A DNA stretch of 64,000 nt from an uncultured Acidobacteriota bacterium (GTDB taxonomy: Bacteria > Acidobacteriota > UBA6911), in assembly GCA_963843575.1 (NCBI GenBank), contig CAWJKZ010000016.1, forward strand, positions 58,428 through 122,427, in the 5' to 3' direction. Within the stretch, counting starts at the first letter, position 1. Every line of letters begins with the position of its first letter. The notes beneath the pieces are model-generated. The model was given only the letters and a program-made list of their open reading frames with translations, was not told the DNA's origin and did not search any database. Below, piece after piece: positions 4,358-49,531 of the stretch. The position numbers were made by a program, and so were the translations under genes.

Positions 4358-4394
4358 GGGCCCCGCCGGCCGCCGGCGCACAGAAAGGAAACGC

Positions 4395-5924
4395 ATGTCT
4401 GGCACCCCCCGAGCCCCGCTCGCCATCCTGATGTTGGCCTGTGCGGCCTGCGCCGCCGGCGAAGCCCCCGGCACGCGCCCGCCCGCGGTCGCGGGCCAGT
4501 TCTACCCGGCCGAGCCCGAGCGCCTGAGGCTGGCGATCGAGCAGTTCATGAAGAGCGCCGTCGCGCCCCTGCCCGGCGAAAAGCCGGTGGCGCTCGTGGT
4601 CCCGCATGCCGGTTACGTGTACTGCGGGCAGATCTGCGCGGACGCCTACCGGCAGGTCGCGGGACAGAACTTCGACGTGGTCGCGATCCTGGGGACCAAC
4701 CACACGGCCGGGGGCTTCCGCGGCATCTCCGTCTACGCGCACGGCGCCTTCCGGACCCCGCTCGGAGACGCTTTGGTCGACGAGGAAGTTGCGGCGCGGC
4801 TGCTGGCCGCGGACCGGGACTGCACGTCCGGCGGGCAGCCTCACGTCCGCGAGCACTCGGTCGAGGTGCAGGTCCCGTTCGTGCAGGCGCTCTTCCCGAA
4901 GGCCAGGATCGTACCTGTCGTCGTCGGCGAACCGGACCTCGACATGTGCTCCAAGTTCGGCGGGGCGCTGGCCGTGTCCCTGAAAGGCCGCCGGGCGCTC
5001 GTCGTGGCCAGCTCGGACCTGTCCCACTACCCCGCGTACGACGATGCGGCGAGCGCCGACCGGCAGATCCTGGAAGCGATGGCAGGCCTGTCCCCGCGCA
5101 AGCTCGACGAGGTCGCGCGCGCACTGCGCACCAGCGGGGTGGCGAACCTCGAAGTCGGGGCGTGCGGCGAGGCGCCTGTCCTTGCGGCGATGAGCGCCGC
5201 GAAGGCGCTGGGCGCCCGCCGCGGCGTCGTGCTGAGCTACGCCAACTCGGGGGATACGCTCCTGGGCGACCGCTCCCGCGTGGTTGGCTATGGCGCCGTC
5301 CTGTACAGCGCCAACGAGGGCGGCCCGGACGTGCGCATCCTGAAACCCGCGCCGCCCCCGGCGGCCCAACCCGGCCCCCTGCCCGAATCGGATCGCAGGG
5401 CGCTCCTCGTTTTTGCCCGCGAGGCCATCCGGCGCTACCTCACCACCCAGACGCTCCCGCTCGCCCGGGGCTTCAGCCCGACCCTGTCGTGCCCCCGGGG
5501 TGCCTTCGTGACCCTGAAGAAAGGCGGGGTGTTGCGCGGCTGCATCGGCCACATCCCGCCGGAAACCCCGCTGGCCCAGACCGTCGGGGCCATGGCCGCG
5601 CAGGCGGCCTTCAACGACCCGAGGTTCCCGCCGCTCACCGCGGGCGAGTTCGCCCAGATCCAGATCGAGATCTCCGCCCTGACGCCTCCGCACCCGATCC
5701 GCGACCCCGACGAGATCGAGCTCGGCCGCGACGGAGTGATCCTGTCCAAAGAGGGGAAATCGGCGGTTTTCCTCCCCCAGGTCGCCACCGAGAACAAGTG
5801 GGGGCTCGACGAGATGCTCGACAACCTCTGCCGCAAGGCCGGCCTGCGGCCGGGGAGCTGGATGCAGGGCGCCCGCTTCTCCGTGTTCCAGGCGGAGGTT
5901 TTCAGCGAAGCGGACCTCCCGTGA
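4395..5924 (+). CDS. amrB: AmmeMemoRadiSam protein B (MEMO)-protein A (AMMECR1) fusion with signal peptide
   Basis: RPPAVAGQFYP, PHAGYVY, EHSVEVQVPF, SSDLSHY (MEMO); GAFVTL...LRGCIG, DPRF, FLPQV (AMMECR1). Confidence 0.92.
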   Translation: MSGTPRAPLAILMLACAACAAGEAPGTRPPAVAGQFYPAEPERLRLAIEQFMKSAVAPLPGEKPVALVVPHAGYVYCGQICADAYRQVAGQNFDVVAILGTNHTAGGFRGISVYAHGAFRTPLGDALVDEEVAARLLAADRDCTSGGQPHVREHSVEVQVPFVQALFPKARIVPVVVGEPDLDMCSKFGGALAVSLKGRRALVVASSDLSHYPAYDDAASADRQILEAMAGLSPRKLDEVARALRTSGVANLEVGACGEAPVLAAMSAAKALGARRGVVLSYANSGDTLLGDRSRVVGYGAVLYSANEGGPDVRILKPAPPPAAQPGPLPESDRRALLVFAREAIRRYLTTQTLPLARGFSPTLSCPRGAFVTLKKGGVLRGCIGHIPPETPLAQTVGAMAAQAAFNDPRFPPLTAGEFAQIQIEISALTPPHPIRDPDEIELGRDGVILSKEGKSAVFLPQVATENKWGLDEMLDNLCRKAGLRPGSWMQGARFSVFQAEVFSEADLP

Positions 5925-8559: not shown

Positions 8560-9288
8560 ATGCCGATTCTGTTCGCGGAGGGGTTGAGCAAGACCTACAC
8601 GACGGGCGAGGCGGTTGTCGAAGCGGTTCGGGGTGTCGACTTGTCGCTCGACCCCGGGGACTTCGCGGCCGTCATGGGTCCGTCGGGTTGCGGAAAATCC
8701 ACGCTCCTGCACCTGTGCGGGGCCATGGACCGGCCCAGCGCGGGCCGACTCGAGCTCGACGGCACGCCTGTAGCGGGACTGGATGAGGAGTCCCTGACGG
8801 CGCTGCGGCGGCGCCGGGTCGGTTTCGTCTTTCAGTTTTTCAACCTCCTCCCAACCCTGACGGTGGGCGAAAACATCGGGCTGCCCCTGCTGCTGGCCGG
8901 CGCGCCGCCGGCCCTGGCGGACGGGCGGGCCGCGCGGGTCGCCGAGCTGGTCGGCCTGGGCCACCGGCTGCGACACTTCCCCCAGCAGCTCTCCGGGGGC
9001 GAGATGCAGCGGGCGGCGGTCGCGCGGGCGATCGTACACGAACCTGCCCTGGTCGTCGCGGACGAGCCGACCGGCAACCTGGACTCCGAGAACGGCGCTC
9101 GCGTGCTTGATCTCCTGGTGCGGCTGAACGCGGAGACGGCCGTGACGATCCTGCTGGCCACGCACGACCCTGCGATCGCCGCGGCCGCCCACCGGGTCCT
9201 GCGGATGAAGGACGGGCGCATCGAGAGCGTCGAGGAGCGGAGCGTCCTGCCGGCGGGGAGGCGGATCACACCCGTTGCGCCTCTTTAG
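8560..9288 (+). CDS. ABC transporter ATP-binding protein (LolD/AttE-like)
   Basis: [28 protein letters not shown]. Confidence 0.93.
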
Positions 9289-11845
9289 GCTGTTCATCCT
9301 GAGGCACCTCGGCAGAGAGCGGGCGCGTTCGGTCAGCGCCGTGTTCGGGTTTGCCCTGGGGATCGCCGTCATCGTCGCAATCCGGATGGCCAACGCCAGC
9401 TCGCTGCGCGGCTTCGAGTCGGCGCTCGACCTCATCTCAGGCAAGACCTCTCTCGAAATCTCGGCGCCCGGCGGCGTGGACGAGACGCGGATACCGGAAC
9501 TCTCCTGGCTGGGTGACTATGGGACCGTGAGCCCGGTGGTGGAGGCAGACGCCCGGGTGCGTGCGGCCTCGGGCGGCGAAGTCGTGCGCGTCCTCGGGGT
9601 CGACATCCTCAGGGACAGGACGCTGCGCGACTATCGCCTGCTCGACTTCGGGGGAGGGCGGCAGCCCGACAGCCGCGAGTTCCTGGAGCTGCTCGTCGAC
9701 CCGCATTCCATTATTCTGACGGCGCGATTCGCGGCGCGTTTCGGGCTCGCGGCGGGCCAGGAGGTGGAGATCACGGCCGGCGACCGCGCGCAGAGGTTCA
9801 CGGTCCGCGGCCTGCTGCGGGACACCGGGCCGGCCCAGGCGCTCGACGGCAACGTCGCCCTGATGGACGTCGCCGCCGCCCAGTGGGTGTTCGCGTCGCT
9901 CGGGCGGCTGACCCGGATCGACGTGCGCCTCAAGGACGGGATCGGCGTCGAGGAGGCGGAGCGGCGGATCGCCCCGCGGCTGCCGGCCGGGATGTCGGCA
10001 GACCGCCCCGCCCGCCGCGGGCGCGAGGTCGAAAAGATGCTGGCGGCCTTTCACTTCAACCTCTCCGCGCTCTCGTACGTTTCCCTGCTGGTCGGCCTGT
10101 TCATGATCTACAACACGGTTTCGGTCTCGGTGGCGGCGCGCCGCCAGGAGATCGGCAGCCTGAGGGCCCTCGGCGCCAGCCGCCGCACCGTGCTGCGCCT
10201 CTTTCTGGGCGAAGCGGCCGTTCTGGCCGTGGCCGGGTGCGGTCTCGGACTGCTGATTGCGCCGTACCTCGCGCGCGGCGCCGTCGCGCTCACCTCCACG
10301 ACCGTCTCGGTTCTGTACCGCGGGGTGGTGTCGCCGCCGCCGGGGCTCGGCCCCTGGGACGCGGTCCTGGCCTTTTCCGTCGGCCTCCCGCTCGCGCTCT
10401 TCTCGGCGTCGGTCCCGGCGCTGGAGGCAGCCCGGGTCCCCCCGGCCGACTCTGTCCGGGGCGCCGACAGGCTCGAGACGCGACACCGCCTGCGGCTGCG
10501 CCACCTGTCCGTTCCGGCGCTGCTGCTGCTGGCCGGGTGGGAGCTGGCGCGACTGGGGCCGGTCGGCGGGCTGCCGGTCTTCGGCTTCTTCTCGGCGCTC
10601 TTTATCGTGTTTGGCGGCGCCGCCCTGACGCCGCTCGTCCTGTTCCTGCTCGCGCGGGCGGGCCGCCGGCCGCTGACGCGCCTCCTGAAGGTCGAGGGGA
10701 TGCTCGCCCACGCCAACCTCTCCGGTTCCGTCCCCCGCCTGTCGGTGTCGGTGGCGGCACTCTCGCTGAGCCTTTCGATGATGGTCGCGATCGCCGTCAT
10801 GGTGGGGAGTTTCCGGGAGACGGTGATTTACTGGGTGGGGCAGACGCTGCGGGCGGACCTCTACCTCGGCCCCGCGCTGCACGGAGCGGGCCGCCCGGCC
10901 GCGCTCTCCCCGGAAGTCGTGCGGACGGCCGCCGCGGACCCGGCGGTCGAGGCCGTCGACCCCTTTCGGCGCGAGGACGCTCCCTTCGCCGGCGGCACCG
11001 TCACGCTCGGCTGCAGCGACTTCGGCGTGCTCCTGGCGCGGGGGGGCCTCCTGTTCAAGAGCCCGCGCGACGGCCGCCGCGCCGCGCTCGCAGCCGCCGG
11101 CCACGAGGGTGTGGTCGTCTCCGAGAGTTTCTCCCTCAGGCACGGCTACGCCGACGGAGACTGGGTCGAGCTGCCGGCCCCCCGGGGGCGCGTCCGGCTC
11201 CGGATCGCCGCCGTATACTACGACTACTCGAGCGACCGCGGCGTCGTCCTGATGGACCGGAGCACCTGGTTGCGCCACTTCGGCGACGCCTCGCCCACGG
11301 GGATGGGGCTCTACCTGAAGGCGGGTTCCGACCCGGCGGCGGCGCGCTCGCGCATCCTCGGCGCCCTCGGCGACAACCACCGCGTCTTCCTCAACACCAA
11401 CGAGTCGCTCCGCCGCGAGGTGCTGCGCATCTTCGACAGCACGTTCGCGGTGACCTGGGCCCTGGAGGCCATCGCCATCTTCGTCGCGATCCTCGGGGTC
11501 TCCTCCACGCTCCTCACCCTGACCTACGAGCGGCGGCGGGACGTCGCCATGCTCCGGCTGATCGGCGCCGGCAGGCGGCAGATCACCAGAATGATCGTGA
11601 CCGAGGCGGGCCTCCTCGGGGCCGCGAGCCAGGCCGTCGGCGTCTCCGTCGGGCTGCTGCTGTCGCTGCTGCTGATCTATGTCGTCAACGTGCAAAGCTT
11701 CGGCTGGACGATCCAGTTCCACCTGCCGCGCGCCTTCCTGATGCAGATGACGGCCGGGATCCTCGCGGCGACCGCCCTGGCTGGCCTCTACCCCGCGCGC
11801 CGCGCCTGCGGGTTCCGGTTGAGCGACCAGGTCGCGGAGGAGTGA
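9275..11845 (+). CDS. FtsX/MacB-type double ABC permease (AttFG-like)
   Basis: Two permease repeats ([13 protein letters not shown]; [12 protein letters not shown]) and [10 protein letters not shown]; overlaps the ATPase stop. Confidence 0.9.
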
Positions 11846-30265: not shown

Positions 30266-30505
30266 GGCTGGCGCAAGAATAATTTCACATTTTTGCTGAC
30301 GGCTCCCGAGCCAACAGATCCTACGGCAGGCAACGATAGAAGATTTCTATTAACGGGGCCGTCAGCCCTCCGGGGCGCGGCGGCGGGCGGGCATCTGCGG
30401 CGTTGCCGCTCCTCGACGATGTCACCACATCGCCTGCGTCGCGGCGCCTTGCATCTGCCCGCCCGGCGCTCGCGCCAAAATGTGAACTTATTCTTTCGCG
30501 AACCC
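30265..30505. mobile_element. 241-bp MITE with ~30-bp terminal inverted repeats and TTA target duplication
   Basis: GGGCTGGCGCAAGAATAATTTCACATTTT ... AAAATGTGAACTTATTCTTTCGCGAACCC, flanked by TTA at 30262-30264 and 30506-30508; partial copy at 15949-15988. Confidence 0.75.
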
Positions 30506-30688
30506 TTAGATCCCCCGAAAATGCCCCTCCCGCGGGGCACATGGCGCAAATTCCTTTCAAAAACCCAAGAAAATGGCCCTTTTCTCCAAATTGGCCATTG
30601 CATTTTCGCGGAATATCCGCAAAATGAGGCTGTCTTCGTATGATCGCGTTCGTTCATCTCGTCAATAGCTCATTTCGGGGAGGGTTAA

Positions 30689-31051: not shown

Positions 31052-31064
31052 GCGCCGAAAATTC

Positions 31065-31133
31065 TGGAGTGCGGCGCCTCGGCGTCGCGTTCACTCACGT
31101 CCTACGGCCGGAATGCTCGGCGCCTCGGCGCCG
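31065..31133. repeat. REP class 2 degenerate copies
   Basis: TGGAGTGCGGCGCCTCGGCGTCGC plus a second cggcgcctcggcgccg. Confidence 0.6.
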
Positions 31134-34389: not shown

Positions 34390-34878
34390 TCATCCTCCAT
34401 AAAGTGTTTCCGTGTTGACCGGCAGGCCGAGCAGCTTCAGGTAGGTAAAGAGCTGCATTTTGTGATTTGTGAAGTGCTCTCGGAACAGGACGAGCATTCT
34501 CTCCAGCTTCCCGCTCCAGCCCCAGGGCGTTGAAACCACTTTTTCAGTGAATTCCTGCTCGCTCAGGCCGTCGATAACGTCGCGTAGGCCGATCCTGTCC
34601 TTACGAATCCGTTCGAGCGCCTCTTGCACGCCGCATGCCGGCATATTCTCGAGTTTCATCCCCTCGACCATCTGCTCGGGCGTGAAAGGCCACTGGCCGG
34701 TGATGAGGCAGCGGACGTCGTCTCCCAGGCCATGGGAGATGTGTTCGATGACCTGACCGAGGCTCATGAAACCCGGTCCAGGCCGCCACTCCAACTTGTC
34801 CGCCGGCGCCATGCCGATGAGCGTTTCGGCGGGTTTATAGGCGTCCATCACCAACTCGTAGAAATCATTCTTCGTCAT
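34390..34878 (-). CDS. DinB family protein
   Basis: WRP...MSLGQVIEHI...EHFTNHKMQLFTYLK. Confidence 0.85.
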   Translation of the reverse strand: MTKNDFYELVMDAYKPAETLIGMAPADKLEWRPGPGFMSLGQVIEHISHGLGDDVRCLITGQWPFTPEQMVEGMKLENMPACGVQEALERIRKDRIGLRDVIDGLSEQEFTEKVVSTPWGWSGKLERMLVLFREHFTNHKMQLFTYLKLLGLPVNTETLYGG

Positions 34879-36247: not shown

Positions 36248-36947
36248 GTGATTCCTCTCTGCGCAAATGGATCTGCAAAGCCGTTGCGCGCCTGAGGTTC
36301 GCGTCTGCTTGTCGGGGTTCCCAGCTGAGTTCGCCGGGCATTTCCCTCTTCCCGAGTCGTATTTCCAGTGCTTGAGGTGAACGCGTCTCCATGATGGTAC
36401 AGCAGCGAGACACGAAGGAGAATACGCGATCCACGACCACAACGAGCGCAACGAACCGCCACGCCAAGGTTATCAGTCCGCCTCTCCGTCCGACCTCGGG
36501 GATCAGCTGCTCTCCGCGTCACGTACGTCATCTGAGTTGGCTCAAGTGACAGCAATCCCCTGGGAACGGTCCAGGAGCGGCGTGTCCGGGTAACGTCCGC
36601 GAAGGCGACTTCACGGGACTTACGCTCTCGTTGTAGCTCATTATTTTCAGACAGCACGTCTCCGGATAGCCCGTTAACCTTACAGGTGGCAGCGGATCTC
36701 AGTTTTCCGCGACGCCGTATCGGGGGGAGTCTCGCAGCCTTGTCTTTTAGATCTTCAAAGCTGCTGAAATCCGAGTGCCCTCAGAGGTATATTGGGCCGC
36801 TGCCCCACCCCCCTGGGTAACGGATCTGCGAAGCCAGCCCTCTGTGGCAGGGTTTCGCAGTTATCCACGAGAAAAGAGCATTCGGCGGCAGGTTCGCCTC
36901 ATTGGTGAATACATCAGGTTCCGCCATGCCCGTTTAGGAGAGTTTTT

Positions 36948-39900
36948 ATGGCTGATTCGCATGGCGAGCCGGAGTTCAAGAAGAAGCGTCCTCGTAAGGT
37001 GAAGGAGATCAGGCATCAATCCTCGCTGACTGACAAAATGACCGACCTCAACCGCAATGCACCCCCTCAGGATTGGCTCATCGGCGGGGGGAAAATGGGC
37101 GATCTGGTCCGCTCCCTGGACTGGTCCGCCACTCCGTTGGGCCCCCGGCACAACTGGCCACCGAGCCTGCGTACAACCGTAAATACCATTCTCGCGACTC
37201 GATTCCCCATGTGCCTGCTCTGGGGCGACGACCTGATCATGATTTACAACGAGGGATATCGGATCATCGCGGCTGATAAGCATCCTCGGGCACTGGGCGG
37301 ATCCAGTCGGGAGATATGGCCGGAGGTGTGGGAATTCAACAAGCCGATTTTCGAAAGGGTCATGACGCGTCGCGAAACCGTCTATCTGGAAGATCAGGTT
37401 TATTCGGTAGCCCGCAAAGGATATCTCGAGCAGGCGTTTTTCACGATCTGCTACAGCCCGGTCTGTGATGAATCTGGCGATGTAGGCGGCACTCTGGTCA
37501 CGCTTCTTGAAACCACGCAGCGAATAAAGGCTGAGGACTCGCTGCGCGCTGAACGGAAACAGGCCGAAGATGCCCTGAAGCTAACCCAGGTATCGATCGA
37601 TAGTGCGGCTGAAATGGTCGCCTGGTTTACTCCCGATGGCGGCGTGTACTACGCGAATGATGCAACCTGCCGGACGTTGGGGTATTCCCGAGAAGAGTTG
37701 CTGAAGATGAGCGCTCTGGATTTCAGTCCCGGTTTTACTAAGGAACAGTACGAGGAACACTGGCAGGAGGTCAGGAAGCGGAAATCGTTGACATTACAGC
37801 CCGTGCACCGTCGAAAGGACGGCACCACGTACTCTGCAGAAGTTCTGGTCAACCACGTCGTATATGGCGGCCGGGAGTTCATCTTTGCTTATGGCACGGA
37901 CATTACCGCCCGTAAGGCGGCCGAGGAAACGTTGCGTCAGCGGGCCGAGGAGGTTGAGCGCCTGCTGGAGTCGGTGCCGGCAGCCGTGTGGGTTGCCCAT
38001 GATTCCCAGTGCCGCATGATCACGGGCAACCGCCGTGCCAACGAGTTCTACGAAGCTGAAACCGGCGAGAATGTCTCAGCCACCATGCTTCCCGAAGCTC
38101 GGCGTTTTTTAACACCTGATGGCCACGAACTGCCGGCTGAAGAACTGCCGATGCAGAAGGCCGTTGCCACAAACCGGGATGTACGGGATGTAGAATTGCA
38201 CGTCCAATTGCCCTCTGGACGACGGATTGCCATGCTGGGCAGCGCTGTGCCCCTGCGCGATCAGGCCGGCAGCGCCCGTGGGTGCATCGGCACATTCCTG
38301 GACATCACCGAGCGCAAGCTGACCGAGGAGGCTCTTCGCCGGTCTGAGGCTCGCTATCGTGTACTCCACGAATCCATGCGCGACGCTTTTGTCCAAGTCG
38401 CGATGGACGGGCAGATCGTCGACTTTAACGACGTTTACTGCCAGATGCTCGGCTACACCCCAGACGAGGTCCGCGAGCTTACCTATCAGGCGATAACGCC
38501 GGAGCGGTGGCATGAGTTTGAGCAACGCGTCGTCCAGGAACAGATCATCGCGCGCGGTTACTCCGACGTGTACGAGAAGGAGTATCGTCGAAAAGACGGC
38601 ACGGTCTTCCCTGTAGAACTGCGGACAATTCTTTTGCGGGATGAGGCTGGCCGACCGGCCGGGATGTGGGGCATCATCCGCGACATTACCGACCGAAAGC
38701 AGGCTGAGAGAGCACTCCAGGAAAGCAGGCGACAATTAGACATCCTCATGCAAAATCTGCATAGCGCTGTAGCGCTGATCGACGAGCAGGGCAAGTTCTC
38801 GATTGTTAATCCGGCATTCATGCGTATGTTCGGCATTGAAGCAACGGCGGATATCAAAAATGTCAATGACAGGGACTGGGGAGAATGGCGGGTCTATGAT
38901 GAAAATGGCCAGCTGCTCGAGACAGACGAGCACCCGGTACGAAAAGCCTCTATGACAGGAAAACCGGTCCGCGACAAACTGGTCGGTGTCCTTTCTCCGT
39001 CGGACAAGGACCTCAAATGGATGCTCATCAGTGCCGAGCCGATCTTGCGGCCCGATGGGCAAACAGGCCCGGTAATTTGCACCTATTACGATATCACCGA
39101 ACGCAAACGAGCCGAACGAATGCTTCAGGCTGCGAATGAACAGCTCAAAATAGCAGACAGGCACAAAGATGAGTTTCTTGCCATGCTCGCGCACGAGTTG
39201 CGCAATCCGCTGGCAGCTATCACCAACGCGATAGAGTTGCTGAAAATGCGCGGACCGGCAGATCCGACATTAATGCGAGCACGGAATTCGGCTTCTCGGC
39301 AAGCGGTTCACATGGTTCGTCTGCTCGACGATCTTCTCGATGTCGCGCGGGTGACGCGAAGGAAGATCAGCCTGAAAAAAGAGGACGTGTCCCTCCACTC
39401 AATTCTGGAGAGCGCGGTCGACGCAAGCAATACGGTCATGAATGCGCGTAACCATCGGCTTTTTGTGTCTCATCCGAAGCAGAAGATGCACGTGCACGGA
39501 GACCCGGTCCGACTTTCGCAAGCCATCGGCAATCTGCTGGACAACGCGGCGAAGTACACGCAGCCTGGGGGCGAGATCTATCTCTTAGCCGATCGTGAAG
39601 GCGACCAGGCTATGATCCGGGTTCGGGACAATGGCAAGGGAATCGAGCCGGAGTTGCTTCCGCGTGTCTTTGAGCTTTTTGTCCAGGGTAGCCGTGCGGC
39701 TGACCGTGCAGAAGGAGGCCTCGGGATCGGTTTGACCATAGTGAAATCGCTCGTAGAGCTTCATGGCGGTCGAGTCGAAGCTCGCAGCGATGGTCCGGGT
39801 TCCGGAAGCGAGTTTTCTATATGGCTCCCGCTTCTGCCCGCAGTTGAAGAAAGCGTTTTGGATAAGGCTATCAGAGAAGCAGAGGACCGGCAGCCACTGC

Positions 39901-40268
39901 GGATTCTGGTCGTAGACGACAATGTGGACTCGGCGGAATTGCTTTCGGTTCTGCTGGAACTCGAAGGGCACAAGGTGATGGTCGCCAACTCTGGCCAGGC
40001 AGCAATTGATCCGGCTCTGCAAAACGTGCCGGATGTCGCATTAGTAGACATCGGCATGCCTGGAATGGACGGCTACGAAGTGGCGAGACGGATGCGCAAT
40101 TTCAAGGAATTGAAGGACATGAAGCTGATCGCAGTGACCGGCTATGGACAGCAGGAAGACATTCAGAAGTCCCGCGATGCGGGATTCCATGATCATCTTG
40201 TAAAGCCCGTCGAACTCGAAACACTCAAGACCGTACTTCAGAGAATCGGCCGAAGAAGCACAAGATGA
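36948..40268 (+). CDS. Multi-PAS hybrid histidine kinase (5 PAS/PAC + HisKA + HATPase + receiver), copy 1
   Basis: Repeated DITxRK PAC ends, FLAMLAHELRNPL, NLLDNAAKY, GGLGIGL, ILVVDDN...DIGMPGMDG. Confidence 0.95.
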   Translation: MADSHGEPEFKKKRPRKVKEIRHQSSLTDKMTDLNRNAPPQDWLIGGGKMGDLVRSLDWSATPLGPRHNWPPSLRTTVNTILATRFPMCLLWGDDLIMIYNEGYRIIAADKHPRALGGSSREIWPEVWEFNKPIFERVMTRRETVYLEDQVYSVARKGYLEQAFFTICYSPVCDESGDVGGTLVTLLETTQRIKAEDSLRAERKQAEDALKLTQVSIDSAAEMVAWFTPDGGVYYANDATCRTLGYSREELLKMSALDFSPGFTKEQYEEHWQEVRKRKSLTLQPVHRRKDGTTYSAEVLVNHVVYGGREFIFAYGTDITARKAAEETLRQRAEEVERLLESVPAAVWVAHDSQCRMITGNRRANEFYEAETGENVSATMLPEARRFLTPDGHELPAEELPMQKAVATNRDVRDVELHVQLPSGRRIAMLGSAVPLRDQAGSARGCIGTFLDITERKLTEEALRRSEARYRVLHESMRDAFVQVAMDGQIVDFNDVYCQMLGYTPDEVRELTYQAITPERWHEFEQRVVQEQIIARGYSDVYEKEYRRKDGTVFPVELRTILLRDEAGRPAGMWGIIRDITDRKQAERALQESRRQLDILMQNLHSAVALIDEQGKFSIVNPAFMRMFGIEATADIKNVNDRDWGEWRVYDENGQLLETDEHPVRKASMTGKPVRDKLVGVLSPSDKDLKWMLISAEPILRPDGQTGPVICTYYDITERKRAERMLQAANEQLKIADRHKDEFLAMLAHELRNPLAAITNAIELLKMRGPADPTLMRARNSASRQAVHMVRLLDDLLDVARVTRRKISLKKEDVSLHSILESAVDASNTVMNARNHRLFVSHPKQKMHVHGDPVRLSQAIGNLLDNAAKYTQPGGEIYLLADREGDQAMIRVRDNGKGIEPELLPRVFELFVQGSRAADRAEGGLGIGLTIVKSLVELHGGRVEARSDGPGSGSEFSIWLPLLPAVEESVLDKAIREAEDRQPLRILVVDDNVDSAELLSVLLELEGHKVMVANSGQAAIDPALQNVPDVALVDIGMPGMDGYEVARRMRNFKELKDMKLIAVTGYGQQEDIQKSRDAGFHDHLVKPVELETLKTVLQRIGRRSTR

Positions 40269-40396
40269 GGTGGCTGCCGCGGCTGATCGAGCAGCTCCGC
40301 ACATCCAAGCAGGCTGAGTTCCCGGCTGGAGTTCCTTCATCTGGACGAAAAGTCGGCAAACCGTCCAATGATCCGCCGAGAGCGTGAACGCCCTCC

Positions 40397-41350
40397 TCAG
40401 GAAAACGGTTCGATGCCAATCCGGTCGTTGACCGCTCCCCTCAAGCGCTGCTTGCATCCAAGGTACCGCTCAGTTGTTTGGACTGAGACATGCCCAAGCA
40501 GAAACTGGATCTGCTCCAACTCACCCCCGGCGGCATGACACATGCGTGCATAGCGGCGGAGGTCGTGCGGCGCCAACCTCGACAATCCGAGCTTTGCAGC
40601 ATTTTGCTTTACCACATGCCAGACGACTTTTTCTGTCACGCCGTGGCCCCACGCTTTCCCTGCTCTGCAGACGCACCGAAATAGTTTCCCGTCGGTCACT
40701 GCAGATGCGGTCACCCAGTGATCCACGGTATTCTTCACCCAGTCCGGGACGGGAACCGTCCTGATATGCCCGGCTTTGCCAATCAAATCAATTATTGCCC
40801 AGTGGTCCTCCCGCCGCTGAAAATGATCGAGACGCAAGTCAGCCAGTTCACCGCGTCGAAGCCCGCAGCCCAATAAGATCGCCAGAATCGCACGATCCCG
40901 CTTGCCTTTGAGGGTCCCGGTATCCGGCAGCTGCCAGAGCGATCGACCTTCTTCAGGTGAAAGCCAATTGCCGAGGCGAACGCCAAGTCTTTTCGCTCCC
41001 TTCACGCGGCGTATGCCGGCGGCCAAATCAGGGCTCAACAGCCCGGAATCGGCGGCCTCGTACGCTAGGCGACGCACAGAAGCAAGCCTGAGGTTAACTG
41101 TACCCGGTGCGAGTTGGCGAGATTCAAGCTCAGCCTTGTATCGGCTCACCACAGCTCTGTTGAACGACAAGCGCGGCTCCGAGCAGTACCATGCGATGAA
41201 CTCGTCAATTGCATGTCGATAACCCCGCTGTGATTCCGGGGAGCGAAGACTCCTCAGAACAGCTGCCTTGGCTTGATCGAGATCCGGAAGGGTAGGTCTG
41301 GTTTTGGTTCATGCAATTTTTCTTGAAATCTTCGTTCGCTTTCTCCTCAT
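40397..41350 (-). CDS. Tyrosine recombinase/integrase; in-frame TGA at codon 14 (41309-41311), possibly degenerate
   Basis: RDRAIL...GLRRGE, GKAG, HDLRR, LLGH.S.QTTERY catalytic motifs. The upstream in-frame region LPDLDQAKAAVL...YRHAIDEFI extends to ATG 41350 across one stop. Confidence 0.85.
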
Positions 41351-41718
41351 AGCCGGCGGCCTCCTGAACGCTGGCTATGAGCATAGCCTTGCTCAGCCTC
41401 TCGGGGCGGATAGCCCGTTAACCGTCCAGGTGGCGGGATCTGTCAACCTCCCTGAAGGCAGTATCTGAGCACCTTTGGCCAGAGCCCTGTCATCGACAGC
41501 CACAGACTCCTCAACGAGCTCTTGCACAAAGCTCAAGTTTGCTGAACTGCGAACGCTTTCAGGGGTATATTGGCTGCTCCAACCTTTGGCAGCGGATCTG
41601 CGACAAGCAGATCTCGGGCAGAGTTCTGCATTAGCCAAGAGAGAGCAAGCCTATTCGGCGGCAGGTTCGCTCATTAGCGGACGCACCAAGTTCCGCCATG
41701 CCCATTTAGGAGAGTTTT

Positions 41719-44700
41719 ATGGCTGATTCGCACCGCGAGCCGGAATTGCAGAGGAAGCGTTCTCGTAAGGTGGATGTGCGCTCCAGGCAGCAGTCCTCGC
41801 TAGACAAATCGACCGAACTCGGCAGCAGTGCACCGTCTCAGGATTGGCTCATCGGCGGGGGGGAAATGGGCGACTTGGTGCGCTCCATGGACTGGTCTGC
41901 CACTCCGTTGGGCCCCCGGCACAGCTGGCCACAAAGCCTGCGTACAACCGCAAATACGGTCCTCGCAACTCCATTTCCCATGTGCCTGCTCTGGGGCGAA
42001 GACCTGACCATGATTTACAACGAGGGATATCGAATCATCGCAGCTGATAAACATCCTCGGGCACTGGGCGGATACAGCCGGGACATATGGTCGGAGGTGT
42101 GGGAATTCAACAAGCCGATTTTCGAAAAAGTCATGACGCGCGGAGAAAGCGTCAATTTGGAAGATCAGGTCTATCCGATAACGCGCAAAGGATTTCTCGA
42201 GCAGGCATCTTTCACAATCTGCTACAGCCCGGTTTACGATGAATCCGGCGCTGTAGGCGGCACTCTGGTTACGCTCATTGAGTCCACGCAGCGAGTCACG
42301 GCCCGTAAGGCTGCCGAGGAAACGTTGCGGCAGCGGGCCGAGGAGGTCGAGCGCCTACTAGAGGCGGTGCCGGCGGCCGTCTGGGTCGCCCATGACCCGC
42401 AGTGCCTCACCATCACCGGCAACCGGCGCGCCAACGAGTTCTACGAAGCCCAGGCCGGCGAGAATGTCTCAGCCACCACGCTGCCCGAAGTTCGGCGCTT
42501 CTTCACACCCGACGGACAAGAACTGCGGGGTGAGGAACTGCCGATGCAGAAGGCCATCGCTACAAACCAGGATGTACGGGATGTCGAGCTGCACGTGCAA
42601 CTGCCCTCGGGAAAACGGATTGCCATGCTGGGCAGCGCCGTTCCCCTGCGCGACCATGCTGGCAGCGCCCGTGGGTGCATCGGCACATTCCTGGACATCA
42701 CCGAGCGCAAGCGGACCGAGGAGGCTCTTCGCCAGTCTGAGGCTCGCTATCGCGTGCTCCACGAGTCCATGCGCGACGCTTTCGTCCAGGTCACGATGGA
42801 AGGGCAGATCGTCGACTTTAACGACCTCTATTACCAGATGCTCGGCTATACCCCAGACGAGGTCCGGGAGCTCACCTATCATGCGATAACGCCGGAACGG
42901 TGGCACGAGTTTGAGGAACGCATTGTCAGGGAACAGATCATCGCGCGCGGTTTCTCCGACGTGTACGAGAAGGAGTATCGTCGAAAGGACGGTACGGTCT
43001 TCCCCGTGGAATTGCGGACAATTCTGTTGCGAGATGAAGCTGGCCGACCGGTCGGGATGTGGGGCATCGTCCGCGATATCACCGCCCGCAAGGCGGCCGA
43101 GGCGGCGCTGCGCGAGAGCGAGGAGCGGTTCCGCGTCGCGCAGGAACTTTCGCCGGATGGTTTCCTGATTTTCCGCCCCCTGCGCGACAGTACGGGTCTT
43201 GTCACCGATTTCCTATGGATGTATGAGAACGATGCTGCCGCTCGAATGAACGATACCAATCCAAAGGAAGTTTGTGGGAAGAGGGTGTCAGAAGTTTTGG
43301 CGCATCATGACAAATCGCCTTTCCACAAAGCATACAAAGAAGTGGCCGAAACAGGTGAGGTTCGTGTTGTAGAGGAGGCCTTCTACGATCAGGATACTTT
43401 TCAGCAGCGACGGTGGTTCCGGGTCGCGGCCGTTCCTGCCACTGGTGGTGACGTGGCAATCCTCGTGCAGGACGTGACGGAACGCAAATCGACCGCGGAG
43501 GCGCGGCGCGAGAGCGAGGAACGGTTCAGATCGGTGGCGGAGAACATGTCGGAAGGCCTGATGCTGTTCGACCCGCGGTCCAATCTGATTTACCAGAACG
43601 CCGCGTCCTTGCACATCCACGGCTATGCGCCCCAGGAGGACGGACGGATCAGCCACAAGAACCTGCCGGCGACATGGCAGGCTTGGGACGACCAAGGCCA
43701 TCCCATCGGCTTCGACCAGTGGCCGGTGTCCCGCGTCTTCCGGGGCGAGCGATTCCAAGACCAAGTGTTGCACGTCCTCCGACCAGAGACAGGACTGGAG
43801 TTCGATGCCAGCTATAACGGCAGTCCGATCTACAACGCCGAAGGCAAGCTGGTGTTCGGTTTCATTACCATTCGTGAGATTACTCAGCAGCGCAAAGCCG
43901 AGGCGGCGCTGCGCGAGAGTCATGCGCGGCTGAAGAAGGTGCTGGAAGTCGAAGCGGTCGGCGTGATGTTCTGGGATCTGGCGACCGGCTGCATGACGGA
44001 CGCCAATGACACATTCCTTCAGATGATGGGCTACAGCCGCCGCGAAGTGGAGGCACGCGAACTCACATGGCAAAAGCTCACCCCACCGGAATACCTAGAG
44101 GTGAGCCTGGCGGAGATCAGGAAGTTCCAGGTGACCGGACGGGTCGGTCCTTACGAAAAGGAGTATTTCCGCAAGGACGGCACGCGGCAGTGGCTCCTCA
44201 TCGCCGGCAGCTCGCTCGGCGACAACCAGTGCGTCGAGTTCTGCGTGGACATCACCGAGCGCAAGCGGGCAGAGGAGGCGTTGCGGGAGAGCGAGGAACG
44301 GCTGGCCGCGGTGACGGAGAACCTTAGAGAGGGCCTGATTATTGCCGATGGCGAGGGACGCGTCTTTTACTGGAACCCGGCGGCCCTGGGCATGTTCGGC
44401 TACGCGAGCATGGAGGAGTGCCGGCGCAAGCTCGCCGAGTTTGCCGACACGTTTGAAGTCCGGCCCCTCGATGACGATCGCCCGCTGCCGGTCGCGGACT
44501 GGCCGATGAGCCGCGTGCTGCGCGGCGAAGTGCTGCGCGATTGGGAAATACGGGTACGCCGGTTCGACCAGCGATGGGAGAAGATCCTCGCGTATTCCGG
44601 CTGGCTCATCCGCAGCGCCAGCGGCGAGACGCTCGCGTTCGTTTCCGTCATTGACGTCACCGAGCGCAAGCAGGCCGAGGCGAAACTGCAGCGAGACCAC

Positions 44701-46198
44701 CCGGCGCTTTCAAACTATTGTTGACCACGCGCCGGTAGCGATCTATGTCAAGAACCGCGACGGGCGGTTCGTGTTCGGCAATCGCAAGCTGGAGCAATAC
44801 ACAGGTCAACCTCTCGAACGCCTCCTCGGAACGACCGACTACGATTTCGCCTCGAGGGAAGACGCCGATCGCTGGCGCGAGAACGATCGGATGATACTGG
44901 AAGGCCAGCGGACGGAGTTCGAAGAAACCGGAACTGATCGCGACGGTCGCCCTTACGTCAACATCTCCGTGAAATTCCCTCTGTCAGACGAGTCGGGAAC
45001 CCCAGCGGAGATCTGTGGAATCTCCATGGATATTACCGACCGCAAACAGGCCGAGGATTCGCTGCGGAATGCCAACGAACAATTGCGTGAAGCAGATCAT
45101 CGGAAGGACGAGTTCCTCGCGATGATGGCGCACGAATTGCGCAACCCGCTTGCGGCAATCGCCAGCGCGATCGAGTTGCTCAAGATGCGCGGCTCCCCAG
45201 ACCCGATGATGCAGCGTGCGCGGGACGCGGCGGTGCGGCAGACCGCTCACATGGCGCGTCTGCTGGACGATCTCCTGGACGTCGCGCGTGTCAGGCAGGG
45301 AAAGGTAAAGCTGAACAGAGCAGATGTTTCCCTACTCTCTGTGCTGGAGAGCGCCATCGAGACCAGCAATCCGGCGATGAATGCGCGGAAACACAGGCTA
45401 TATGTTTCCCACCCCCGCGAACCGATGCGGGTGAACGGCGATCCGGTGCGTCTCTCGCAGGCGATCGGCAATCTGCTGGACAATGCGGCGAAATACACCG
45501 CTACCGAAGGTGAAATCTATTTGAGCGCGGACCGTGAAGGCCAGGAGGCTGTCATCCGGGTTCGTGACAACGGCAAGGGAATCGAGCCGGAATTACTTCC
45601 GCACATATTTGAGCTGTTCGTGCAGGGGAGCCGCTCTCCCGACCGTGCCGAAGGTGGCCTCGGCATCGGGTTGACCCTGGTGCAGTCCATTGTAGAACTG
45701 CACGGCGGCCGGGTCGAAGCGCGTAGCGCTGGTCACGGCCACGGAAGTGAATTTTGTATCCGCCTGCCGCTTCTGAAAGTCGAAGGGAGTGTTCCGGCCA
45801 AGGCTGTCGGAGAAGAAAAGGCAAGGCCGCTTCGGATCCTGGTGGTAGACGATAACCATGACTCGGCGGAATTGCTTTCCGTTCTGCTGGAAATCGAGGG
45901 CCACAACGTGGTGGTCGCCAACTCCGGTCCGGCAGCGATCGACATTGCCTTGAACCAAGTGCCGGAAGTAGCTCTGATCGATATTGGGATGCCAGGAATG
46001 GACGGATACGCAGTAGCGAGACGGCTGCGGCAGTCACCGGAACTGAAGCATCTGGCATTGGTGGCGATCACGGGCTATGGTCAGCAGGAGGACATTGAGA
46101 GGTCTCGCGATGCTGGATTCGACGATCACCTGGTGAAGCCGGTCGATATAGAAACACTCAACCGACTACTACTGAAGATCGGCCAAAATATGCGCTGA
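41719..46198 (+). CDS. Multi-PAS hybrid histidine kinase (8 PAS/PAC + HisKA + HATPase + receiver), copy 2, frameshifted at ~44700
   Basis: ORFs 41719-44724 and 44651-46198 join into one kinase; N-terminus and kinase/receiver closely similar to copy 1. Confidence 0.9.
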
Positions 46199-47207
46199 TG
46201 CGGCGCCTAGCTCGGGTCATTGATGGACCGTCTCGCCCCCTTAAATCCCATGAGTCGCAAAATGGGAACTTACTCCGCCCGTTCGCGCCAGCTGAGCGAC
46301 TGTCGGAGTCCCTTCATCTGGACGAATAGTCGAAAATAACCGGCCAATGCTAGGTGGTCTGCAGTGCTTTCGTATGACTTTTCAGATGTAAATCGCTTTT
46401 CCCATATTCTTCTCTCTTTTTATTTTTCGATGCGAAGGTTGCGCATGCAAGCGATTCTAGTGATGCCCCTCACTGGCGTCGCTCATGTGCTTTAGGTCGT
46501 GATATAGTCACAGAAGCAAGCAACTCCACACACCTGAAAATGGGCAGAGATTGGCCGGTTATGTCGGCTATTCGGAAAAGCACCCCGCGCCGGAGCGGAA
46601 CGGAGTGCCACGATCCGCCATTGGAGACAGATTGGGAACACACCTCCGTCCCTGTTATGGACCCGGTTTTAGGAGATTTCAGCGCGGAGAACGATAGTTC
46701 CAGGGCCAACCGGCAGGCATGTTCCGCGCGGAAGCCAGATAGAGCCAAGTAATGCATCCATAGTAGGTTGCAGCAGGCCGACGATGACTATCAGAGAGTA
46801 AATCCCCGGAAACGGCGATATGGGAAAGAACTCAAGACCGGCCGAGTCTGGCGCCGTCAGTCCCGAAGCAGCTCTTCCGAATGCGGCGGCAGATCCGCGA
46901 CCTCTTCCTCACACACGACGTTTTCCGGGTTCACCATCACGACCTTCTCTCTCCCGGCCAGCCGCTGTCACCGAACACTCAAAAGCGGCCACGAAGGAAC
47001 ACTTGAAAACCGGCCACTCGGATAGCGGGCAGTCAGTATCGAATAGGACTCCTCACCGATTCAAGAAATTCTCTATATATGCCAGCAGGGCCTGTGGGAA
47101 ATGTGGGAAAGCCGAAGGCTTTTCCAAGTCTCTGTGGTAATCCGCGCTTTCCAGCGGATTTCCATAGAGACGGCATTTTCCATAGGCCAAGCGGAGCTGT
47201 TGATTGT

Positions 47208-47960
47208 TCAAGCGTTCTCCTGTGCAGCGCGCTGGGTGCGCTGGTGAAGGCGGAAGCTCTTACCCTGCATCTGGACGACCTCGGCGTGAGCCAGGAATCG
47301 GTCGAGAATGGCTGTTGCTGCCGGGATGTCGCCGAGGAATTGCCCCCAATCCTGAGTCGGTCGGTTGGTCGTGATCAGAGTAGAAGCCGTTTCATGACGG
47401 CGCACGAAGATCTCGAGAAGGTCTTCCGCAGCGCTTGGACCGAGCTTCTTCATGCCGAAGTCCTCGAGGACAAGAAGGTCGACATGGGTGAGCTGATCGA
47501 CGAGGCTTCGCCGTTCGCCGGTGGCTTCAGCTTCAGCAAAGTCCTGAGCCAGGTCGAAGACACTCCGAACGATGACCCGGTATCCGGCCCGGATGGCGCC
47601 GACTGCAATGGCGATAGCGGCGTGGGTTTTACCGATGCCGGGTGGCCCGATCAGCAAGACGCCCTCATGCGAGGCCATGAAACGAGCGGTGGCAAGTTCA
47701 ACGAACTTCGGGCGAGGTATCTTGGGATTGAAAGAAAAATCGAAGTCCGAGAATTCCTTGACCTGGACAATACCCGCCTGTTTGAGGCGGCGTGCGAAGA
47801 GTCGGTCGGCACGGCGGGCAAGCTCGTCCGAAACGAGGAGCTCGAGAAACTCGGCAGGATCCAGGGGTGCGCTGCGTGCCTGTTGGAGGCGCCCGGGCAA
47901 AGCCTCCGCAATGCCCGAAAGGCGAAGGTGCCGGAGTTGGGACGGCAGTTGAGGGTTCAT
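47208..47960 (-). CDS. istB: IS21 helper ATPase
   Basis: FDFSFNP, GPPGIGKTH, LLVLEDFG, TTNRP..DW, AILDRFL. Confidence 0.93.
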   Translation of the reverse strand: MNPQLPSQLRHLRLSGIAEALPGRLQQARSAPLDPAEFLELLVSDELARRADRLFARRLKQAGIVQVKEFSDFDFSFNPKIPRPKFVELATARFMASHEGVLLIGPPGIGKTHAAIAIAVGAIRAGYRVIVRSVFDLAQDFAEAEATGERRSLVDQLTHVDLLVLEDFGMKKLGPSAAEDLLEIFVRRHETASTLITTNRPTQDWGQFLGDIPAATAILDRFLAHAEVVQMQGKSFRLHQRTQRAAQENA

Positions 47961-49531
47961 AGTAGATTCTCCAGACGGTAATCGGTTAAGGGACGGATGC
48001 TTGGGTGTTCGGAAATGAGAGGCTGTGCTGTGGATTTTGCGGCATGCTGCTCTGTCAGCCGCTGCAAGTCTTTATAGCGGAACAGTCGGTGAACGGTCGC
48101 GGTCCGGACTGCAGCCAGCACACGCTCGCGGGGATGCAGGCGCGTCAAACCGAGAACGCCCTGAATCAGACGCAGAGCCCGCACACCGCGTTCCTCAAGG
48201 GCGGCTTCCGCCCATTCACGAAACGATGATCCTACGCGCTCACATCGCGCGAGCAGGTTGGTGGCGAAGATCCTCTGCGAGGATGTCTCCCCTGTAGGTT
48301 CACCCGGGCGCGGAGCGAACTGTCCCGGGCGCAGGCGGGTATAGACGGCGACCTGGAGGTCGTTATGGTACAGGCGCACAAGGTTGCGATCCCAGCGCAC
48401 CCGGATCTTTTGCCCCAGGAGATGCAACGGCGCCGGGTAGAACGCGCCGTCGACCTCGACATGCCCGTCGGGGTGGATGGTACGCTCGCCGGAGCGGAAG
48501 AAAGCAAACGGCTCCGAGGCGAGTGGTTGTAGCGCCGGTTTCTCGATCTCGAGGAAGTGAGCGATAACCTGACGGCGGGTAGTGCCGTGAATCCGCAACC
48601 GAGCCACGGTTCGGTTCCAACGCCGGAGGTGCTCGTTCTGCTCGGCGAGACTCTCGAAACGGCGACCTTTAAGGGCATTGTCTTTGACATAGCCGCCGCT
48701 TCGCTCCTGCTTGCCGTTCTCCTGGGGATTGCGGGGGCGGGTGGGCAAGGGCGTGAAGCCCCAGTGCCGTGCGAAGGCCGCGTAGATCTCATTGACATCG
48801 GGATCGTAGAGACATGCCCGCACGACCGCCGCCTTCAGGTTGTCATGCCGAATGATGCGGGGAACTCCGCCCAGATTGGCGAAAGCATTTTCGTGCAGGC
48901 GGAGGAAAGTCTCGAGCGCCTGGTCCCAAACGGCTTCCTCATAGCCATGCCGGGAGTGGCTCAGGGTCATGCGGAAAACCCAAGGTCGTTTCCATTGGCC
49001 GCTTCCCTCATCCAGCGTGGGGGCTCCCTGGAAGAAATCAACCTGGCCTTCTTCTCCCGGGGCACTGTGGAACACTCCAACAGGACGACGGCCGCGGGGC
49101 AGCTTCCGGACGAACCGTTTGACGGCTTCGTAGCTGTATCCGAATCCGTACTCCTCAACCAGATCCTGCCAGATACGCTGAACCGACAGACCGGAGTCCA
49201 ACTTGGAGACAATCACATCACGGAAGAGAGCCGCTGACGACCGCGGCGGCAGATTGGAGCCGGGGAACGCTTTGGCCGGTTTTGAATCCGAGCCGGCGGT
49301 CACTTTGGCCGCTTTTGCCGGGTCGGATCCCTCAAACGCGCCGTTTGGACCATCGATTGGTGCCTCGGAGCCGGGGAACACTTTGGCCGGTTTTGCTTGC
49401 CGGATGCGATCGTATCGGGAAATGGTTTCGCGCCGGACTCCGGTTTCAGCTTCTATACGCCGGTAGGTCCAACCGAGTTCAAGAAGAGCAGTAACTTGCT
49501 GTAGCTTTGGCGTTTTCAAGTAGTTCGGCAC
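47957..49531 (-). CDS. istA: IS21 DDE transposase
   Basis: HTH N-terminus, PGEEGQVDF, HDNLKAAV, PQENGKQER, HGTT; ATGA-type overlap with istB. Confidence 0.93.
   Translation of the reverse strand: MPNYLKTPKLQQVTALLELGWTYRRIEAETGVRRETISRYDRIRQAKPAKVFPGSEAPIDGPNGAFEGSDPAKAAKVTAGSDSKPAKAFPGSNLPPRSSAALFRDVIVSKLDSGLSVQRIWQDLVEEYGFGYSYEAVKRFVRKLPRGRRPVGVFHSAPGEEGQVDFFQGAPTLDEGSGQWKRPWVFRMTLSHSRHGYEEAVWDQALETFLRLHENAFANLGGVPRIIRHDNLKAAVVRACLYDPDVNEIYAAFARHWGFTPLPTRPRNPQENGKQERSGGYVKDNALKGRRFESLAEQNEHLRRWNRTVARLRIHGTTRRQVIAHFLEIEKPALQPLASEPFAFFRSGERTIHPDGHVEVDGAFYPAPLHLLGQKIRVRWDRNLVRLYHNDLQVAVYTRLRPGQFAPRPGEPTGETSSQRIFATNLLARCERVGSSFREWAEAALEERGVRALRLIQGVLGLTRLHPRERVLAAVRTATVHRLFRYKDLQRLTEQHAAKSTAQPLISEHPSIRPLTDYRLENLL

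Follow-up and report, generated by a model that had tools for sequence, protein, structure and literature searches.

A tyrosine recombinase gene between twin sensor kinase cassettes in an uncultured Acidobacteriota bacterium: a probable decayed member of a site-specific recombination cassette system

The stretch of DNA analyzed here, in the following referred to as the window, comprises 64,000 nt from the assembly of an uncultured Acidobacteriota bacterium (6.68 Mb in 27 contigs, 88% complete). It contains two genes encoding related sensor kinases, HK1 and HK2, and in between them a gene for a tyrosine recombinase, int. Both kinase genes are bordered by non-coding DNA that recurs at the two copies, named U upstream and D downstream. 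An earlier note, made from the sequence alone, had described this layout as U-HK1-D, int, U-HK2-D, and gene calls together with a repeat search showed that the layout and its coordinates are correct. What had escaped that note are an in-frame TGA codon in int, a frameshift in HK2 and the fact that the start of U and the second half of D, put in register, are two versions of one core-type site of about 28 bp. One version lies upstream of int (UP) and the other one downstream of int (DOWN). Read along the plus strand, sites and genes follow each other as A(UP)-HK1-B(DOWN)-int-C(UP)-HK2-D(DOWN), with the sites A-D all in the same orientation. The features are as follows (all coordinates are window positions):

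36658..36685, minus strand: site A, degenerate UP-type, outer (5') border of the HK1 cassette; 15.1 bits, typed UP
36686..36947, plus strand: HK1 promoter and leader (remainder of U1, the U copy of HK1); aligns with the stretch upstream of HK2
36948..40268, plus strand: HK1, hybrid sensor kinase of 1106 amino acids, intact; PAS repeats, HisKA, HATPase_c, receiver
40328..40370, minus strand: D1 block holding site B; exact D motif
40341-40368, minus strand: site B, full DOWN-type, common to the HK1 cassette and the int junction; 29.4 bits, typed DOWN
40397..41350, minus strand: int, Xer-like simple tyrosine recombinase of 317 codons; from translation and Pfam
41350..41377, minus strand: int leader hairpin; loop containing the Shine-Dalgarno sequence, 3' foot bearing the start codon
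41402..41429, minus strand: site C, UP-type, between int and HK2; 24.4 bits, typed UP
41430..41718, plus strand: HK2 promoter and leader (remainder of U2, the U copy of HK2); from alignment with the HK1 upstream DNA
41719..46198, plus strand: HK2, a paralogue of HK1 with additional PAS repeats, frameshifted
46305..46349, minus strand: D2 block holding site D; from alignment of the D motif
46318-46347, minus strand: site D, decayed DOWN-type with a 2-nt insertion and central changes; from alignment with site B

HK2 is distributed over two reading frames (41719-44724 and 44651-46198), and the frameshift is located near 44685-44700. The HK1 and HK2 proteins are 59-62% identical in aligned blocks, with a DNA identity of 72-89%. 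The 17-mer with which U starts is identical at 36663-36679 (within site A) and 41407-41423 (within site C), as noted before; at three mismatches or fewer it has two matches in the window compared to 0.14 expected, a number that was reached by 1/100 shuffles, and a 22-mer of D (at 40334 and 46311) has two matches compared to 0.00 expected. Neither the U 17-mer nor the D 22-mer is found at any other place in the whole assembly. It was confirmed that the similarity of U continues in a patchy manner down to the ATG (78% column identity) and that D is conserved, in contrast to the sequence separating it from the stop codon, which cannot be aligned. Likewise, the homology limits at 27 bp from the recombinase stop and 57 bp from its start are correct if the ATG at 41350 is taken as start. 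An alignment of the two kinase units revealed that their homology begins and stops at the sites, and sites A and C are identical in 17 central nucleotides though the whole of U shows 78% identity only.

The earlier note suggested that D and/or U are recombination sites. This is supported for D and for the first ~28 bp of U, as int homologues of other genomes are flanked by the same two variants of the site, but not for the ~260 bp of U beyond the site. This patchy part is ordinary paralogous promoter and leader DNA: each of the kinase cassettes carries 263-289 nt of upstream DNA with a common promoter-like (-10-like) block and a ribosome-binding site, and promoter-like hexamers lie at 36764-36793 within the block common to both kinase upstream copies. 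Moreover, the relevant palindrome is TGGACG...CGTCCA rather than the one that had been pointed out within D, TTCATC-TG-GACGAA.

The sites were modeled by a matrix of 28 nt that was built from int-flanking sites in 80 loci (the best 80 of 364 encoding relatives; together 843 kb), nearly all of them from metagenome-assembled genomes (MAGs) of Acidobacteriota. The consensus is a palindrome with the arms TGGACG and CGTCCA round an asymmetric centre, extended outward to CCACyTGG in several sites. The UP variant has the centre ACSGSCT and the DOWN variant the centre GCCGACT. Both differ at two central positions, and this split sorts 15/15 and 18/19 sites, these being the same training sites as those of the classifier. 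By this typing sites A and C are UP and site B is DOWN, while site D aligns with site B. Applied to the whole 6.68-Mb genome, the matrix yielded only seven hits of at least 18 bits and three of these are site B (on both strands) and site C, showing that the site model is specific. Site A retains the 17 central nucleotides of site C, with the arm on the chromosomal side departing from the consensus, and site D, with its 2-nt insertion, is not picked up by the ungapped matrix. A degenerate site pattern allowing one mismatch gave no more hits in 41 genomes than the reversed control and is too noisy for counts per genome. Rfam at gathering threshold gave no match in the window and ARAGORN detected no tRNA within 29-48 kb, so that the sites represent neither a known RNA nor a tRNA attachment site.

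The stop-to-stop frame of int covers 40397-41308. Starting from the ATG at 41350, which is aligned with the starts of the homologues, the gene comprises 317 codons, of which codon 14 is an in-frame TGA (41309-41311); homologues have CGC or TGG at this position. Pfam assigns the catalytic domain Phage_integrase (PF00589, 69.5 bits) and a SAM-like N-terminal domain (PF02899, 23.8 bits). The catalytic residues R, K, HxxR, H and Y align with those of XerD (1a0p) and of the archaeal XerC-like XerA (4a8e) in the motifs LR, GK, HxLR, GH and Y, and a one-residue gap follows HxxR relative to four homologues. With a core-binding SAM-like domain and a catalytic domain but no arm-binding domain, the protein has the build of a simple (Xer-like) tyrosine recombinase. 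Judged from its reading frame, int is probably a pseudogene.

The best NCBIfam models for int are XerC and XerD (104.2 and 91.3 bits; cut-offs 335 and 330), which raises the question of whether the sites are the chromosome's dif-type dimer-resolution site with a dedicated Xer enzyme, the kinases being insertions of the type known from integrative mobile elements exploiting Xer recombination (IMEX). The dif-like site layout of ~11-6-11 nt, the restriction of strong sites to this single locus of the genome and the enzyme's preference for Xer models and Xer structures would be in line with this. However, int scores far under the cut-offs of both models, and the genome encodes a canonical XerD (363.6 bits, cut-off 329.6) as well as a XerC-like gene elsewhere. 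Moreover, the family is patchy: close homologues (E <= 1e-30, 60-83% identity) are present in only 9/40 related genomes, often in several copies or in pieces, and one of them resides on a conjugative plasmid. Nor does the GC skew of the 122-kb contig clearly switch at this position. A role in dimer resolution is thus very improbable.

Most of 77 distinct int leaders contain a hairpin whose loop holds GGAGG and whose 3' foot bears the start codon. Nine pairs named by hand were tested in 33 of these leaders: 74.9% of the cells are paired compared to 54.8% in shuffles, with 0/500 shuffles reaching the observed value, and the covariation amounts to 0.496 compared to at most 0.18 with slid partners. 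RNAalifold predicted no structure for the int leaders, the upstream parts of which misalign. In IS10 and IS50, comparable folds block translation of read-through transcripts, and by analogy the hairpin of the int leader might play the same role.

A search for U and D in relatives showed that they co-occur with this recombinase family around different cargo (in the following, L denotes a locus and G a genome). The DNA common to the int region of the window spans ~1.03-1.04 kb in the two closest relative loci and is shorter in the others; in relatives it ends upstream in sequence resembling the reverse complement of the U start and downstream in sequence resembling the second half of D. Adjoining int, 15 UP and 19 DOWN sites were detected in 23/80 loci. 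In addition, 26 further sites are present in 17/80 loci, and 21/26 of these lie on the int strand, whereas reversed sequences gave no such site and five shuffles 0-1 each. These extra sites closely enclose one to few genes, and the cargo occurs in both orientations. It includes a two-component system, GH2 and GH3 glycosidases, Ser/Thr kinases, a methyltransferase, a phosphodiesterase, MazF, GT20, a sigma factor with a nucleotidyl transferase, and insertion sequences. L031, L045 and L056 likewise show the order DOWN-gene-UP-int-DOWN, each with cargo other than a kinase of this type. Moreover, cassettes are linked by short junctions lacking int, which consist of an UP site, a spacer of 19-40 nt and a DOWN site (~85 bp; L031, L066, L068, three in L080, L103 and L094). 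The int cassette is built like such a short junction with int replacing the spacer.

Comparisons between loci are in line with a mobility of these units. Many pairs of int cassettes that are 85-99% identical between genomes share only the DNA from about -80..-150 to +0..+50 around the gene, and in one int subfamily the common sequence sets in within the centre of the UP site, with a different outer arm and flank. What genomes have in common is often no more than the int cassette of ~1.05 kb, its limits falling inside the sites. One filled/empty pair is available: in L094 only one site (5880-5911) lies between int and a bestrophin-like gene, and L080 has the same flanks (98.6% and 85.5% identical) around 2.3 kb (3589-5892, a hydrolase cassette and a methyltransferase cassette) that are absent from L094. 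The stretches 3560-3591 and 5881-5912 of L080 both align to the one site of L094, i.e., the insertion occurred exactly at the site and the site was duplicated. Furthermore, a GH2 module (84% identity over ~2.9 kb) is located upstream of int in L066 but downstream and inverted in L068.

These comparisons bear on the possibility that U and D are regulatory DNA only, i.e., a promoter or operator and a terminator that belong to the kinase and recombinase genes and that selection has maintained since a duplication. U does possess the common promoter-like block and ribosome-binding site described above, the UP site 120-150 bp upstream of int would be in a possible position for an autoregulatory operator, and on the int strand a terminator-like fold overlaps site B. 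However, the same 28-bp palindrome marks cassette borders far from any int or kinase gene and is duplicated around an inserted segment in the pair L080/L094. Furthermore, no T run follows D on the kinase strand and the terminator-like fold is not kept in the homologues inspected by eye. A purely regulatory function is therefore improbable.

Alternatively, homologous or illegitimate recombination might simply have duplicated a kinase gene and its flanks in tandem, and a small int-only element landed at the junction afterwards; the kinases would not be cargo, and sites A and D would be leftovers or due to chance. The paralogues are old, as the protein and DNA identities given above indicate, only sites B and C are strong, and the unit common to genomes is the int cassette alone. 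Moreover, no other kinase cassette was found: the kinase lies beside int in 0/12 int loci of relatives, and a site or int lies near kinase relatives in 0/23 metagenome loci. An int insertion, however, brings sites only to the junction, yet the outer ends carry matching halves, site A sharing 17/17 central nucleotides and the outer arm with site C, and site D sharing an arm and 21/22 nt of the D motif with site B. The end of the unit homology at the sites and the DOWN-gene-UP-int-DOWN order with other cargo elsewhere likewise speak against a simple duplication, which we regard as unlikely.

The explanation that we consider likely places the locus, as a decayed member, in a cassette system of Acidobacteriota that is based on site-specific recombination and appears to be widespread in soil Acidobacteria. 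An int gene preceded by an UP site and followed by a DOWN site, more sites at cassette borders and an insertion that duplicates the site are what characterizes the proposed system, and these were found in sites A-D of the window and in the loci of the family. The int gene sits inside a junction flanked by two directly oriented core-type sites of ~28 bp, neighbouring genes lie in cassettes bounded by the same sites, and other genomes in addition possess the short junctions without int. Regarding the catalysis by the recombinase, its rules of partner choice and the history of this array, we infer the following. The recombinase would pair like site with like site. Recombination of A with C or of B with D would then release an excised circle carrying int and one kinase, and integration of a circle composed of int, an UP site and a kinase into an UP-kinase-DOWN cassette already in place, at its DOWN (or UP) site, would generate exactly the tandem layout of the window. 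Unequal exchange between sister chromatids could result in the same layout. The two central differences between UP and DOWN would prevent int from excising itself, as is the case with heterospecific lox spacers.

Several observations weigh against this interpretation in addition to the missing kinase cassettes in relatives. The outer sites are weak, site A reaching 15.1 bits and site D carrying its 2-nt insertion. The matrix detects a site beside int in only 23/80 loci, although in some loci of other subfamilies diverged sites were seen by eye. Moreover, the site order is not uniform, with an UP-type site after int in L055, rows of UP sites in L068 and 5/26 extra sites on the other strand. In genome G059 a kinase does lie near int fragments, but copies of IS91-type elements confuse the picture, leaving it ambiguous. 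Finally, the nonsense codon of int and the frameshift of HK2 could be assembly errors. Taken at face value, the TGA at codon 14 of int, the gap after HxxR, the frameshift in HK2 and the degenerate sites A and D make the copy in the window look inactive, and it is probably fixed.

The cassette-system idea of the earlier note is thus largely borne out, with the corrections that the two repeats reduce to one ~28-bp palindrome in two variants, that the kinases are incidental cargo and that the copy is decayed. As to its proposal of a small integrative element or cassette system, the further sites bounding varied modules and the filled/empty pair with its insertion exactly at the site are in favor of it, while the copy of the window itself looks dead. 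Its assumption that PAS kinases are preferentially carried and accumulated is not supported given the diverse cargo elsewhere and the 23 metagenome loci mentioned above. The kinases are incidental rather than habitual cargo and the element is not kinase-specific. The N-terminal domain of the kinases is present in only 4/50 other genomes of the family; genome G055 has the kinase domain but no site. In L117 (G059:C9:138000-152000) a kinase with an N-terminal domain 53% identical to that of HK1 lies between two IS91-type transposase genes (99% identical over 300 nt), and two int-family fragments ~10 kb apart surround the kinase. The same-genus genome G001 offers no syntenic empty site; synteny ends near 34.1 kb of the window.

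The array is part of a larger island of low GC content (~34.0-51.0 kb; 53-61% GC compared to 65-70% upstream). The island and the rarity of the kinase N-terminal domain are signs of a foreign origin. Within the island a DinB-like gene (34390-34878) shows 92% DNA identity to a sequence of another genus (G019:C32). An IS21-family element with istA and istB (47208-49531; IstA 238.7 bits, IstB 221.8 bits, both above cut-offs) is located 0.86 kb beyond site D and the D2 block, and it may have removed whatever came after the array. Two further repeats lie ahead of the island. The first is an element of ~215 bp resembling miniature inverted-repeat transposable elements (30278-30495) with terminal inverted repeats; its core (~30356-30510) has dozens of matches at 85-97% identity in G009 and G019 and no Rfam match. 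The second is a GC-rich repeat of ~70 bp (31060-31132) with ~30 copies at 81-94% identity in G001.

With respect to the wider int family, an intact homologue (WP_013573308.1, 62.5% identity) is encoded at 8968-9921 of the conjugative plasmid pACIX905 of the cultured strain Granulicella tundricola MP5ACTX9 (NC_015060.1, L142); its leader hairpin is present and the matrix finds no adjacent site. The int regions of L039 and L040, from MAGs labelled Binatia and Eisenbacteria, are 99.3% identical over 1462 bp, which reflects either a recent transfer between phyla or mis-binning. IS91-type elements (Zn_Tnp_IS91 and Y2_Tnp), each with a second tyrosine recombinase of its own, repeatedly adjoin members of the int family or related kinases, as listed here:

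G000:C9:8051-11239 (L022): IS91-type neighbour
L073, L074, L027 and L117: further loci with IS91-type neighbours

These elements may target the same sites as the int family.

Among known systems, integrons are similar in that they combine a tyrosine recombinase with adjacent arrays of gene cassettes, between which imperfect-palindromic junctions are placed. The short junctions described here, with two core-type sites and a spacer in ~85 bp, recall the two-site build of attC, and HK2 points away from int, one site lying between both genes and another one at the 3' end of HK2. In contrast to integrons, the sites are short palindromes of the double-strand type, the cassettes have promoters of their own, sometimes contain several genes and lie in either orientation, and int is placed inside a junction with a site on both sides. 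The locus is no integron, as the enzyme does not carry the IntI signature: the model TIGR02249 reaches 36.1 bits (cut-off 265) and covers residues 215-288 only, the C-terminal part. An attC site was likewise rejected, judged without an attC covariance model: the site consensus contains no GTTRRRY box, promoter-like DNA lies upstream of the kinase cassettes and the cargo occurs in both orientations.

The modules of dif systems generally lie between oppositely oriented sites. The sites found here, unlike those, are mostly direct (the 21/26 extra sites on the int strand) and have two centre variants, and the element encodes its own recombinase, whereas dif modules and IMEX use the host XerC/XerD. 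Since the sites bracket a dedicated recombinase gene, assignment to this class was rejected. What the system has in common with the dif modules (pdif sites) of Acinetobacter plasmids and with IMEX are discrete gene modules that are bounded by 28-bp Xer-type sites and shuffled between replicons, and a site layout resembling 11-6-11 (PMC6449649, PMC13141974, PMC7399989). The locus is no recombinase-in-trio element, which would have three adjacent tyrosine recombinase genes: the window holds a single int, and downstream of the paralogue on contig C9 there are a second recombinase and a Y2 transposase of the IS91 type, with no trio.

A parallel for the way in which the sites might work is found in engineering. 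Heterospecific lox and FRT sites, in the engineered use of Cre and Flp and not as a natural system, recombine like with like, and a segment between unlike sites is stable. As the two site variants here also differ only in the central spacer, we think that UP and DOWN may work in a comparable way. With regard to the enzyme, the orphan XerD-like 'phage integrase' genes of Acidobacteria are similar, and Solibacter MAGs are among the int-family loci found here. In Candidatus Solibacter usitatus, Challacombe and Kuske (2012; PMC3469429) counted 27 integrase genes of COG4974, many of them near-identical, in the absence of a prophage; unlike for the family described here, the portions of that survey considered mention neither sites nor cassettes or junctions. 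Smyshlyaev et al. (2021) make no mention of Acidobacteria in their main text, as far as covered, but their datasets may classify the enzyme. A literature search at the level of titles and abstracts found no published description of the int family or its sites.

Beyond the window, a more general scheme can be put forward tentatively, and it may well turn out otherwise. Acidobacteriota and some neighbouring soil phyla would carry an undescribed capture and exchange system that is integron-like but differently built. Its Xer-like recombinase would be encoded in a two-site junction, with the ~85-bp junctions lacking int as non-autonomous counterparts. Cassettes that bring their own promoter and one or several genes, whole signalling genes among them, would move like-with-like at two heterospecific double-stranded sites, i.e., by natural cassette exchange. 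The leader hairpin would hide the ribosome-binding site, so that the enzyme would be made only from transcripts starting at its own promoter.

Acidobacteria belong to the most abundant bacteria in soil, their genomes are large and rich in paralogues, and members of the phylum are difficult to grow. Their many orphan XerD-like integrases were noted without explanation in the survey of 2012 (PMC3469429). For the window alone the finding is a smaller matter, as it would be one decayed instance accounting for the twin kinases. If the system exists as proposed, it would constitute a third natural design of a cassette system beside integrons and dif modules, and the sites, which are compact (~28 bp) and come as two mutually exclusive variants, could serve for practical cassette exchange. 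The int homologue on the conjugative plasmid of Granulicella tundricola MP5ACTX9 makes the idea open to testing at the bench. For the biology of the Acidobacteria, it would provide a concrete mechanism for the expansion of paralogues and for horizontal exchange via promoter-bearing modules, which include sensor kinases, glycosidases, Ser/Thr kinases and toxin genes.

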